A stretch of DNA of 64,000 nt from Eledone cirrhosa (lineage: Eukaryota), in contig OZ024744.1 in assembly GCA_964016885.1 (NCBI GenBank), forward strand, positions 77,128,001 through 77,192,000, in the 5' to 3' direction. The translations under genes and the position numbers were made by a program. The notes under the pieces are model-generated. The model saw only the letters and a list, made by a program, of their open reading frames with translations. It was not told the origin of the DNA and did no database searches. Below are positions 17,675 to 62,041 of this stretch, one piece after another. Positions within the stretch are counted from its first letter, which is position 1; each line of letters starts with the position of its first letter.

Positions 17675-17741
17675 AAATACATAATGATATATATATACAA
17701 TGATATTAAATAAATGGAAACTATATTTATAAAACCATATT

Positions 17742-17807
17742 TATTCTATTATATATATTTCAAGGGTACCAAAAAAAAACTTTGGTACGCTTTCATCAGA
17801 TAAAATA
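17742..17807 (-). ncRNA. Minimal type I hammerhead ribozyme motif
   Basis: Minus strand: tattttat CTGATGA aagcgtaccaaa...tttggtaccctt GAAA tatata TA atagaata. Confidence 0.8.
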
Positions 17808-18019
17808 CAAAGTGTGTTTCATAAATTTTGATATAGCCAAGGAACATACCTTAACGGTTGAAGTTTTCCTTGGATAGTGGAGTTAAAGACAGATATTTCA
17901 AAATTGTTAAGATGAGTATGCAATTTTGAAATATCTGTCTTTAACTCGACTATCCAAGGAAAACTTCAACCGTTAAGGTATGTTCCTTGGCTATGTCAAA
18001 ATGTATAAAACACACTTTG

Positions 18020-18081
18020 TATTTTATCTGATGAAAGCGTACCCAAAGTTTTGGTACCATTGAAATATATATAATAGAATA
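18020..18081 (+). ncRNA. Minimal type I hammerhead ribozyme motif
   Basis: tattttat CTGATGA aagcgtacc caaagtttt ggtaccatt GAAA tatata TA atagaata; predicted cut after 18073. Confidence 0.75.
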
Positions 18082-18829
18082 AATATGGTTTTATAAATAT
18101 AGTTTCCATCTATTTAATATCATTGAATATTATACTCCATAATATTATAAAAACTGTTGAGTGCTCTGAATCAGTTATAAACATTTATATTTGTTGAATT
18201 ACCAACAAATTGAATATCCTTTCTGTTTATAATGATATATATATATGTATGTGAATATATAATGATATATCTATATCTATCACAGGTCGAATATTAAGCA
18301 CAGAGCATATTTATAAGCATGAAGTAGTAAACCCGAGATTGTACATCAATGTACACTCTTGACAGGTGCAATGTGTCCGAACACGGAAGAGCCGAACTCC
18401 CACCGTCATTGTCCCCATCTCTCTCACCCTCCCCATCTCTCTGTATAGTGAACAAATGGGGTCACATGTGCTGGCCACCCCAACAACCCCGTATTTTTAC
18501 ATACTCATAAAATTATGTAGCACTAAAATTACAACAGATATATTTCACAAAAAGACAGACACGCACGCACCAATATTTGAACTTTCATTCATGCCACTAC
18601 TCTCCGACCACCACTACCACACACAGCAAAGGGAACAATATCCATTGAATTTAATGATGGGTTTGTAAAGGCAAAGTGGTGAGTATTGTTACTCTGGAAT
18701 TTCAGCTGTGCACTCCCAACAACGAATAGTCTCATTTAAACTGAATATTGTAAAATGTAAGGGAGACAATAATTGATGTGTCATGCAAGAGTTATTTCCC
18801 TTAAAACAAAGTTGCTATAAAGATAAAGC

Positions 18830-19035
18830 GTGAATGCACTTGGCTTAGTGTGTATGAGATTTGCATTCACAAGCACGCATTGCTCGGATCCGGCAATGCG
18901 TTACGTCTTTGAGCAGTACACCTTATTTCACGTTACTCCAGTTCACTCAGCTGGGGAAAATGTGTTGCGGCGTCATTGGTGCCAAGTTGTTTCGACCACT
19001 CATTTTCCCTTGGAGAATATTTGTGGTGAAACATA
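18830..19035 (+). mobile_element. Degenerate Meta-type SINE
   Basis: TGGCTTAGTG head and TCTTTGAGCAGTACACCTTATTTCACGTTACTCCAGTTCACTCAGCTG, matching the 2575-2847 element. Confidence 0.6.
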
Positions 19036-19127
19036 TATGTGTGTGTGTGTGTGTGTGTGTGTGTGTGTGTGTGTGTGTGTGTGTGTGTGTGTGTGTGTGT
19101 GTGTGTGCGCGCGCGCGCGCGTGCGTG

Positions 19128-19458
19128 TACAGCTATGTCGGAGCGAAATTTTTAATTCTACTTTCAGGCTGAGCCGGCTTATACAGTTCTATATGCAAAT
19201 GAAGCTAATCAGTCCATTTACACAGTCGAAACAACTATATATGTTTGTGTTTCAAATTCCACAAGAGAGCAGGGGAAGTACTGTTCTGACGAGGGCCAGT
19301 GGCAAAAATGTACATTGGCAGTTATCCCCCGCTCTGTCTGCTGGAATCCGCTTGACGGCGCTAGCCGTAAGCCTTTCAACATTCATAGCTAGAAGGCTTT
19401 CCAAAGTGTTATTCTTAAACATACCGTATATCATTAGATATTTAGATATACGAAATTC
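19128..19458 (+). mobile_element. Short element with a degenerate hammerhead (family H2)
   Basis: Homologous to both arms at 44627-45250; actgtt CTGACGA ... aaaa tgtaca TT ggcagt at 19280-19322. Confidence 0.65.
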
Positions 19459-19589
19459 TCTCTCTCAAAAACACACACACACACACACACACACACACAC
19501 ACACACACACACACACACACACACACACACACACACACACACACACACACACACACACACACACACACACAGATATATAGATATATATG

Positions 19590-59321: not shown

Positions 59322-59647
59322 AAATTAGTATCCTAGACACATCTATGTATGCTATATATAAAATATAAAACACCGCACATGGCATCCTAGCGAGTCTCAC
59401 AAACCCCCACCACTAAAAATACCAGCCAGGTTTACTCGACATTTGAAATAGCTCAACAAATTAACGGAGCCGAATATATATATATATATATTTAAAACAA
59501 TGAACTAAAAAATCAAGTCATTAGAGAAATACTTCACTGCTTTACGATCGTTTCTAGATGATGATAATACATTGTAGCTATACTCAGTAATTGATCTATG
59601 TAAGGTTACTTACAAACTATCAGATAAAGAGAATATATATACACACA

Positions 59648-60142
59648 CAGATTGAAAAGTAACTCTATTGAACGCCGAAAGGTACCTCACCATCTTGCAA
59701 GATGAAATCTGGCCAGTTATCTGTACTTGGGAGAATATTGAAGATTTGATTTTTCATGCAAGATGTTCGTGAAAGGCTGAATGCCCACTTCCTGCGCAGA
59801 TGGATGAATCGTCGTGGTCCGCATGACTTAACACCCTGCGACTTTTTTCTTTGAGGTCAGTTAAAGGAGCAAGTCTACTCTACCAAACCAACCACTTTGG
59901 AAGAACTTGAAGGGCGAATACGAGAAGTTATGTTTTCCATCCCACAAGAGTTCCTGTTGAAATCAGTTGATGCGGTTCCCGAACAGCTTGAGAAGCTCGT
60001 GGTGAATGCTGGTGCCCATATCAAATTTTAAATAAAACTCCATGCTATACGGTTTCTTCTCATATTCATTTCTTGTAAAAATTGTAGTTAAGAAATAAAT
60101 TATAAGAATTTAAAAATAGGGAATTACTTATCAATCACCCTG
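59648..60142 (+). mobile_element. Internally deleted Tc1/mariner-superfamily transposon
   Basis: RWMNRRGPH-DLTPCDFFL*GQLKEQVYSTKPTTLEELEGRI; right end TACTTATCAATCACCCTG; decayed left end; extra inverted TIR piece at 60157. Confidence 0.8.
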
Positions 60143-60196
60143 TGTATATATATATACAGAGTGATTGATAAGTATATATATATATATATACATATA

Positions 60197-60536
60197 TATA
60201 AAGAAAAAAAGATGAAATCGAAAATGCAACTGGAGTCTTATTTTTTTTTAAATATATATATTTATTTGGTTCCTTTACCGGTTTCGCAGTTCTTCTGCTT
60301 TTCAAAAGTAGAGTTGAGATGGTGGGTCTGTGCTTTTTCTCATGTGAGAAAAACCACAGACCCTCCATCTCAACTCTACTTTTGAAAAGCAGAAGAAGTG
60401 CTAAAAATAAATATCTATATTTTTTTTTAAAATATGACTCTAGTTGCATTTTCGATTTCATTTTTTTTTCTTTATACTTTCACTCGTGTAGGACACCTCG
60501 GTTATTTTTCATTTTGTAAAAAAACCTCACTTTCTA
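60197..60536 (+). mobile_element. Fold-back element with a decayed hammerhead (H8)
   Basis: Arms 60197-60342 and 60345-60476, tail to 60536; minus strand 60273-60308: ctt TTGAAAA gcag aagaa ctgc GAAAC cg GTA aag. Confidence 0.7.
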
Positions 60537-60710
60537 ATATATATATATATATATATGTATATATATATATATATATATATATATATATATATATATATAT
60601 ATATATATATATATATGTATATATATATATATATATATATATATATATATATATATATATATATATATATGATATTAAATAAATGGAAACTATATTTATA
60701 AAACCATATT

Positions 60711-60776
60711 TATTTCGTTATATATATTTCAGGGATATCATATTAACAATATGTTATGCCTTCTTCAGACAAAATA
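60711..60776 (-). ncRNA. Minimal type I hammerhead motif
   Basis: Exact reverse complement of 61620-61685. Confidence 0.8.
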
Positions 60777-61619
60777 CAATATAAACAGTCTTATAAATAA
60801 ATAGATACGACATACCTTTCAATCACCTTGCATTTGGGAGGTTGATTTGGCAGTAAAAAATATTGTGGACAGTTGTAAAAAGAAAGAGAGAAAGAAAGAA
60901 AGAAAGAGAAACGAAGAAAAAGAAGAGATGCATGTGACTAAATAGAGAGATATAGAAAGATAGATAAAGAGAAGAACTTCATGTAAAGAAACAGAGAGAA
61001 ATATATATAGAGAGAGGAAAAAAGAAAGAAATAGAGATAGATAGATAGAGAAACTAGGAAGTTGAGTATCGGTTGATACATTTATTTATTTATTTATTTA
61101 TTTATTTAGCTCTAGTATTTTATACGAACTAATATTTTCTACGGGATAAAACATAGCGGTTTTAAATTCTGCCTCGTTTATGTTTCATTTTCTCTTTTTC
61201 ATTTTCTCTTTTTTCTCTCTATATAACGGCTATTTTCTCTCTTGACTACATACATCTCTCTTTACATTAATACTAGAGCTAAATAAATAAATAAATAAAT
61301 AAATAAATGTATCAACCGATACTCAACTTCCTAGTTTCTCTATCTATCTCTATCTATTTCTTTCTTTTTTCCTCTCTCTATATATATTTCTCTCTGTTTC
61401 TTTACATGAAGTTCTTCTCTTTATCTATCTTTCTATATCTCTCTATTTAGTCACATGCATCTCTTCTTTTTCTTCGTTTCTCTTTCTTTCTTTCTTTCTT
61501 TCTTTCTCTCTTTCTTTTTACAACTGTCCACAATATTTTTTACTGCCAAATCAACCTCCCAAATGCAAGGTGATTGAAAGGTATGTCGTATCTATTTATT
61601 TATAAGACTGTTTATATTG

Positions 61620-61685
61620 TATTTTGTCTGAAGAAGGCATAACATATTGTTAATATGATATCCCTGAAATATATATAACGAAATA
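61620..61685 (+). ncRNA. Minimal type I hammerhead motif
   Basis: tattttgt CTGAAGA aggcataacatatt gtt aatatgatatccct GAAA tatata TA acgaaata; predicted cut after 61677. Confidence 0.8.
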
Positions 61686-62041
61686 AATATGGTTTTATAA
61701 ATATAGTTTCCATTTATTTAATATCATAAATATACTCCAAATACTTGTTGAGTGCTTTTATATCAGTTAAAAATATTTACTCGTTGTTAACCCAACAATT
61801 TAAATATAACTTTCCATATATATATATATATATGTATATATATATATATATATATATATATATATATATATATATATATGTATATATATATATATATATA
61901 TATATATATATATATATATATATATGTATATATATATATGTGTATATATATATATATATATATATATATATATATATGTATATATATATATATATATATA
62001 TATATATATATATATATATATATATATATATATATATATAT

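Follow-up and report, generated by a model that had tools for sequence, protein, structure and literature searches.

Penelope-like elements (PLEs) of the Hydra clade, among them Hydra-1_Obim and Penelope-13_HM, are described as having an RWK motif, a DKT motif, a CxCX5C linker and CxxC and CxH motifs around the E and N of the endonuclease (EN), together with a C-terminal GIY-YIG domain, (TA)n targets and a hammerhead ribozyme near the 3' end (PMC8557442). For Penelope-13_HM, an inverted copy truncated at its 5' end and a hammerhead on both strands are given (supplement of PMC8557442), and pairs of hammerheads on opposite strands, 100-700 bp apart, have been reported in Schistosoma mansoni (PMC4209133). 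The tail of PLEs is described as optional or often present at one end only (PMC3846280, PMC8557442), so that the pattern is known qualitatively, and how PLEs come to have inverted ends and a tail on one side is a question that PMC8557442 names as open. Here we analyze a stretch of 64,000 nt from Eledone cirrhosa (contig OZ024744.1, positions 77,128,001 to 77,192,000; hereafter the window), in which a preliminary description had proposed three fold-back elements with a hammerhead on each strand (family H1; here E1, E2 and E3 in their order along the window). Such paired hammerheads at inverted PLE ends are already known (PMC4209133, PMC8557442); what was not encountered in print is a rule by which each end of one insertion takes a different one of two fixed start sites.

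The H1 sequences were traced to a larger parent element. In the 3.0 Gb of genome surveyed, two pairs of E3-type ends 3.8 kb apart proved to be elements of the form pLTR-ORF-pLTR (with pLTR for pseudo-long terminal repeat and ORF for open reading frame) with a tail, one of which (L032) also has an inverted 5' arm. The parent unit (pLTR-ORF-pLTR-tail, with partial tandem pLTRs) is 3746 nt long and has an inverted 5' arm, and the hammerhead lies inside the pLTR. It exceeds the Hydra-clade norm (< 3 kb, PMC8557442) because its 3' untranslated region (UTR) is long: the unit measures 3.75 kb with a 1.4-kb 3' UTR, against ~1.1-3.0 kb for the Hydra families of that paper, and the unpaired tail of H1 elements is ~85-100 nt, against 30-40 nt in Hydra-clade PLEs (PMC8557442). 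An unbroken ORF of 736-742 aa is present in 10 of 20 further ORF-linked copies, and related ORF pieces (47-87% identity) adjoin ends of the E1 and E2 types. The PLE origin suggested in the preliminary description is thus borne out, with autonomous parents for all three window subfamilies. Genome-wide, the E3-type end gave 875 candidates (the 40 scored are 99-100% identical), and an exact pattern of the hammerhead 3' half, with the E3 group excluded, had 23,499 matches (reversed control 0), corresponding to at least 23,499 copies.

The AlphaFold2 (AF2) model of one parental ORF (P0001) has a pLDDT of 89.7, and its top Foldseek match is TERT (3du5, E 1.3e-9, 11% identity); the aspartates of the reverse transcriptase (RT) are invariant in 60 homologs. 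The ORF had no sequence match in Pfam or the PDB. At its C-terminus a GIY-YIG motif (IIY...YVG, followed by R, E and N) was spotted by eye and had no profile match; Y619, Y632, G634 and R643 are invariant among the 60 homologs. P0001 carries the Hydra-clade motifs DKT, CxCX5C and CxxC and CxH around E and N, RWR replaces RWK, and CCHH is absent as judged by eye. Homologs in Argonauta hians are 36-41% identical, and H1 insertions sit in (TA)n flanks. The assignment of H1 as a young family of Hydra-clade PLEs, made by motif list and not by RT tree, appears well supported.

H1 copies begin at either of two sites that lie ~85-90 nt from each other. Site 1, at the tail end, was matched exactly 2,809 times within the E3 group (read-through into the ORF counted in); site 2, at the pLTR end, had 726 matches for one variant. 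Among 57 close back-to-back pairs, the tail was found on one side in 54, on both sides in 1 and on neither in 2. Because most samples had been picked for the tail, partner ends were scored from both directions. Thirty loci picked for a site-2 end included 16 with a visible partner end, which was site 1 in 16/16; thirty loci picked for a site-1 end included 12, and here the partner was site 2 in 12/12 (Fisher 3e-8 between the two sets, which have one insertion in common). The rule also spans ends 4-6 kb apart. Eleven of 20 full-length copies could be scored, and all had one site per end, with site 1 on the right and site 2 on the left in 7 and the reverse in 4. For 13 copies a prediction was set before their far ends were seen, and the 12 that were scorable all matched it (8 site 1, 4 site 2; Fisher 0.002), including 4 that are the rarer way round. 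Neither strict pairing of the sites nor a double-priming reading was found in the literature consulted, although the supplements of PMC11167929 (Fig. S2) and PMC4209133 may hold it.

The two arms of an insertion diverge by a median of 0.9%, against 6.1% between insertions (61 pairs), and this near-identity indicates that both come from one source lineage. They nevertheless stop independently, for example at -1497/-79, -861/-176 and -909/-118 (counted back from the parent end), their lengths range from < 50 to > 1,500 nt, centre junctions vary among copies, and ORF sequence is present in both arms of three copies (L186, L191 and L200). Nearly identical arms would also result from snap-back self-priming as proposed in PMC3846280, in which the cDNA, or an antisense template as for rotifer PLEs, folds at a palindrome and copies itself into an inverted arm. 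Several centres suit this route, being near-perfect turns or holding short fold-back fillers, and five two-armed copies have arm ends within 10 nt of each other. However, each arm has sequence that the other lacks in 16 of 31 two-armed copies (upstream sequence in the site-2 arm, the tail in the other), so that neither can be a copy of its partner; snap-back moreover gives no account of sites that swap together at ends 4-6 kb apart, and the symmetric cases gather where single arms also stop. As a general route snap-back therefore failed and is improbable, although it is possible for single symmetric copies.

Because the arms stop independently, H1 elements are mostly not snap-back copies, nor are they MITEs (miniature inverted-repeat transposable elements). 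A MITE or other fold-back DNA element moving as a unit would fit the inverted arms, the TA flanks, the high copy number and a common size near 450 nt, but centre junctions and arm lengths vary as given above, the ends are unequal and the sequence is that of a PLE 3' end. H1 lacks fixed terminal inverted repeats and is not copied as a unit; the candidate was rejected and retains hardly any probability. The preliminary description had itself allowed for symmetric MITEs with no link to a PLE ORF; parents with a PLE ORF exist, and the arms are unequal. Its term 'heavily truncated' is apt, whereas 'non-autonomous' does not apply to the hairpin as a unit, because the centre junctions vary from copy to copy.

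We propose, at a probability of roughly 0.78, that the H1 elements are short two-armed Hydra-clade PLE insertions made by double target-primed reverse transcription, in one complex with two fixed start sites. One protein-RNA complex would cut a (TA)n target in both strands, with each cut end priming one cDNA. Site 1 would be the start for one subunit and site 2 for the other, either with one RNA read twice or with two RNAs held unequally, and repair would then join both cDNA ends to give back-to-back arms. Short, near-symmetric hairpins would form where the two cDNAs reach and run off a shared RNA 5' end, which would lie at a putative pLTR promoter ~275 nt upstream of the tail end. The hammerhead, as part of the parent pLTR, would be carried along, and the fold-back would be a by-product and not a self-copying unit. 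Strict pairing and arm identity are most simply accounted for by one RNA read twice; two RNAs on an unequal dimer are also possible. LINE-1 twin priming is comparable in that both target strands prime cDNA and an inverted 5' piece is left. In LINE-1 the internal position of the second priming varies, and the sequence of the 3' piece is not repeated in the inverted one, whereas the H1 starts are both fixed and its arms have sequence in common.

A close biochemical parallel is Poseidon of Anolis carolinensis (PAc), a PLE that was seen in vitro to have two start sites and to cut and extend each of the two strands (PMC11167929). PAc resembles H1 in its two internal RT start sites with the tail between them, its AT-rich targets, the cutting and extension of both strands, an AC-rich stem-loop near the start and a hammerhead dispensable for insertion; it differs in belonging to another clade and in a hammerhead that overlaps the ORF start (PMC11167929). 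No statement that the ends of one insertion take one site each was found in the available parts of that paper. The one-site-per-end rule separates double priming from self-priming and could be tested in the existing in vitro PLE assay. The H1 family is young and abundant enough to expose a strict rule, and it supplies intact ORFs of the Hydra clade, for which no biochemistry was found in the accessible literature. As a side effect, the proposed insertion mechanism would seed the genome with thousands of potential long hairpins.

With respect to the 5' ends, 14 of the 60 ends that lie within -100 to -350 fall at -267 to -284, where 4.3 are expected (P 7e-5, or ~1e-3 allowing for the choice of window). 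In this pile-up zone a TCACT-like motif precedes a GTATGT-like one by 30-45 nt; TCACT has been termed initiator-like (Inr-like) in PMC3846280, and the intron of Drosophila virilis Penelope begins 46 bp past the start site (PMC2377424). We infer that an RNA 5' end lies in the zone, a strong RT stop being the alternative.

Several points weigh against the reading of H1 as double-primed insertions and its placement of the RNA 5' end. Three of the 57 close pairs break the rule, 7 of 28 scorable site-2 copies are without a partner arm, and target duplications are unreadable in (TA)n. The samples were drawn mostly from first contigs and by exact patterns. PMC11167929 reports, in the parts available, that top and bottom strands did not differ in start site; this neither demonstrates pairing per molecule nor excludes it. 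The mechanism, likely as it seems, is built on insertion sequences and on the anole PLE as an in vitro analogue. The pile-up window was picked after inspection of the data, and although the same zone holds 18/30 E1-type and 20/30 E2-type ends, the E2 sample was cut off near -253 by its own query and is hence biased. Among 50 upstream pLTRs from copies with an ORF, only 4 end in the zone, while 33 pass -300, and a single start at -275 does not explain these unless template jumps, circles or read-through RNA are involved.

A circular template is neither favored nor disfavored by the single upstream pLTR in 50 that exceeds 1,100 nt. The lengths of the upstream pLTRs (L093-L122 and L183-L202) are spread fairly evenly from 29 to ~1,100 nt. 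In L188, a 168-nt unit at ~2300-2760, consisting of the pLTR end, the tail and the first 58 nt toward the ORF, is repeated 2.2 times with shared private changes and ends at site 2; it could be the product of a small circular template, of repeated jumps or of a later duplication. Of 8 matches that have a base other than G following the putative first exon, none was a spliced genomic copy, and alignment of four contig sets to the parent gave no intron joint, the contigs being uninformative on expression or editing.

The abundance of short copies raises the question of whether they have templates of their own. Short single-arm RNAs, running from promoter to tail and made from solo or fold-back copies, might serve as such, making much of the H1 population a SINE-like, non-autonomous family mobilized in trans by the same two-ended chemistry. 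The E3 group has 2,809 tail ends against 129 pLTR-ORF junctions, the hammerhead has ~100-fold the contig depth of the ORF (a weak measure, since all subfamilies are summed), and the pile-up coincides with a promoter-like motif that short copies retain. Priming in the upstream pLTR of a full-length mRNA would yield the same short products, however, and all three window subfamilies have ORF-linked relatives. We regard SINE-like mobilization as a tentative option, less probable than not yet well above the snap-back route.

Within the window, the three H1 elements and a stub lie in TA-rich flanks at the positions first given for them. E1 consists of an inverted arm (17698-17923, minus strand), which starts at site 2 without a tail, reaches ~-325 of the parent end and holds an intact hammerhead (predicted cut after 17750), followed by a sense arm with tail (17924-18228, plus strand; tail 18127-18228), which ends at site 1 and has its core near 18028, a predicted cut after 18073 and a damaged stem II. 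E2 runs on the minus strand: its sense arm with tail (57048-57315; tail 57048-57132) ends at site 1, has an intact hammerhead (predicted cut after 57186) and a 5' end in the pile-up zone, and its inverted arm (57337-57519, plus strand) starts at site 2, with the core at 57418, a predicted cut after 57466 and a damaged stem II. The inverted arm of E3 (60669-61119, minus strand) extends from site 2 to ~-545, with a hammerhead and a predicted cut after 60719. Its sense arm (61118-61817, plus strand) comprises parent 3' UTR from ~-710, a core at 61628, a predicted cut after 61677, site 2 at 61727 and a tail (61728-61817) ending at site 1; an Inr-like motif near 61542 and a GTATGT donor-like motif near 61581 on the same strand may act as promoter and splice donor. 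E3 is asymmetric, as its 149-nt centre is parent 3' UTR and part of the sense arm. The stub (62452-62521, minus strand) is a lone inverted arm that begins at site 2, extends into stem II and lacks the CTGANGA half.

These coordinates refine the preliminary description in several respects. The parts of the proposed layout (inverted arm, arm and tail) are all present, with the orientation of E2 reversed. An arm length of ~210 bp holds for E1, while the paired length is 170-175 bp in E2 (~165 claimed) and ~460 bp in E3 (~450 claimed). The stub exists but contains only the GAAA half of the motif, as an inverted arm. The quoted stem II pairings of E1 and E2 are those of the minus-strand copies and are damaged in the plus-strand copies (18073 and 57466). 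The predicted cuts at 18073, 57466 and 61677 are correct and have minus-strand partners at 17750, 57186 and 60719, respectively; two of the three named (18073 and 57466) belong to decaying copies.

The minimal type I hammerheads of metazoan PLEs described in PMC4209133 share with H1 a short palindromic stem III, a long stem II and low predicted stability as monomers. H1 differs from them in that most copies are without the G10.1-C11.1 pair at the base of stem II and in an apparently extended stem I (second helix of ~10 bp), and its long stem II with a C-C mismatch and all-AU 8-nt palindrome are unlike the motif of Hydra-1_oBim (PMC8557442, as far as available). A type I hammerhead descriptor, one of the checks suggested at the outset, matched 5 of the 6 H1 motifs in the window, the sixth being the plus strand of E1. 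With stem I set at >= 6 bp it gave 6 matches in the window (5 in H1, 1 in a second family, H2, see below), against 0 in each of 100 block shuffles. Rfam profiles, by contrast, had no hammerhead match at H1 in the window (E <= 1), nor was there one at gathering score in three parent loci.

For the survey of stem variation, 114 distinct motifs were parsed and 49 of 188 distinct segments remained unparsed. As the parse demanded a CUGANGA and GAAA...UH core, the remaining core letters are fixed by the selection of motifs; N7, which was free, is T in 81, A in 22, G in 9 and C in 2, and the cut triplet is AUA. Stem II varies at pair 2 (AT 68, GC 38, GT 8), pair 5 (AT 56, GC 42, GT 8) and pair 6 (TA 78, CG 31), and stem I at pair 2 (AT 68, GT 34, GC 10), whereas the C-C mismatch of stem II is kept in 108/114. 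The claimed covariation of stems I and II is upheld by these counts, with A-U/G-C and U-A/C-G swaps in stem II, although the copies are related and few independent events are involved. Stem III reads tatata in 73 and tatgta in 36 of the 114 motifs, and both form an 8-nt self-complementary stretch, the latter via G-U pairs. The second helix that seems to lengthen stem I shows 42 pair-keeping against 51 pair-breaking changes and is thus weakly supported. A hammerhead is supported at the level of sequence by the free N7 and the compensatory stems, and cleavage itself is predicted.

Folding of the six window copies placed the active monomer 3-10 kcal/mol above the minimum; in a single-arm RNA, the H1 hammerhead is predicted to cut as a dimer or with protein help. 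The hairpins predicted for whole elements have energies of -255 to -740 kcal/mol, and the catalytic core is bound to the opposite arm in each of the five folds computed for them. The proposed double-stranded RNA (dsRNA) hairpin thus agrees with folding, but its core pairs with its own antisense, and a read-through hairpin RNA is predicted to be blocked from cleaving. Insertion 5' ends are not piled up at the hammerhead cut, with 3 of 93 falling at -145 to -135, so that cleaved RNA does not stand out as a template for insertion.

Hairpins of such stability could be kept for a function of host or element, with ribozyme and antisense acting as a small-RNA source, an ADAR substrate or a switch. 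Thousands of such pairs are likely genome-wide, judging from neighbors within 4 kb among the first 100 listed H1 matches, of which 18 were back-to-back, 2 facing and 5 same-strand. The proposed insertion mechanism, on the other hand, accounts for the shape without selection, and stem II is in decay in two of the six hammerheads of the window. Conservation of single loci was not seen either, though no search was aimed at it. A retained function is about as improbable as the snap-back route, if not slightly more so; incidental dsRNA from H1 hairpins is likely, and function is a separate claim.

H1 was also considered as a non-LTR retrozyme, a class that is likewise PLE-derived and non-coding with a type I hammerhead (bioRxiv 10.64898/2026.07.22.740005). 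Retrozymes as described there are head-to-tail tandems, whereas H1 copies are single or back-to-back, and the candidate was rejected on the mostly back-to-back arrangement of neighbors (18 against 5 same-strand in the sample above).

An alignment of 29 diverged copies (RNAalifold) yielded an alternative off-state fold in which the tail pairs with the catalytic core. Taken copy by copy, this duplex is better than that of shuffled tails in 14/29 (cut-off of at most 5 in 100); its pairing probability exceeds 0.5 in 10/29 copies, with a median of 0.06, and the second half of the fold beats shuffles in 0/29 copies. The off-state is a weaker lead, which would fit the protein-dependent ribozyme of the anole PLE (PMC11167929, available parts). 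A broader and speculative extension is that PLEs read a single RNA twice, through an asymmetric dimer with staggered fixed starts and one cDNA per side of the break, and that the tail doubles as an anti-ribozyme strand until the enzyme opens the hammerhead. We consider this combined scheme doubtful, though worth stating: if it were true, double reading would account in a single step for the hairpin stubs, for the tail on one side only and for the inversion of the pLTR, and an anti-ribozyme tail would explain the protein need of the anole PLE ribozyme.

The second hammerhead family, H2 (56150-56900, plus strand, cores at 56331 and 56760), is built of tandem units of ~420-430 nt and has 9,756 exact core matches; it fits the retrozyme description (bioRxiv 10.64898/2026.07.22.740005, as far as available). 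Two fixed 3' ends ~56 nt apart were seen among 30 H2 loci, one each in 3 clear back-to-back insertions and with 2 unclear, and most H2 copies have a core-complementary stretch shortly past the cut. A fragment of another PLE RT (63707-64000, plus strand), 43% identical to P0001 over 105 aa, runs out of the window at its end. More short fold-backs, mostly in TA-rich flanks, were found at 44612-45229, 51851-51969, 55721-55887, 60282-60405 and 62045-62270, and are possibly the ends of other PLE families. A weak Rfam match to HH9 at 55903-55978 (24.5 bits, gathering score 52, E 0.11) is probably due to chance. The region 4500-43000 holds a cluster of non-LTR retrotransposon ORFs on both strands, which we take by their motifs to be Tx1/L1-like and R4/Dong-like, with near-identical long frames at 11990-14707 and 14939-17740.

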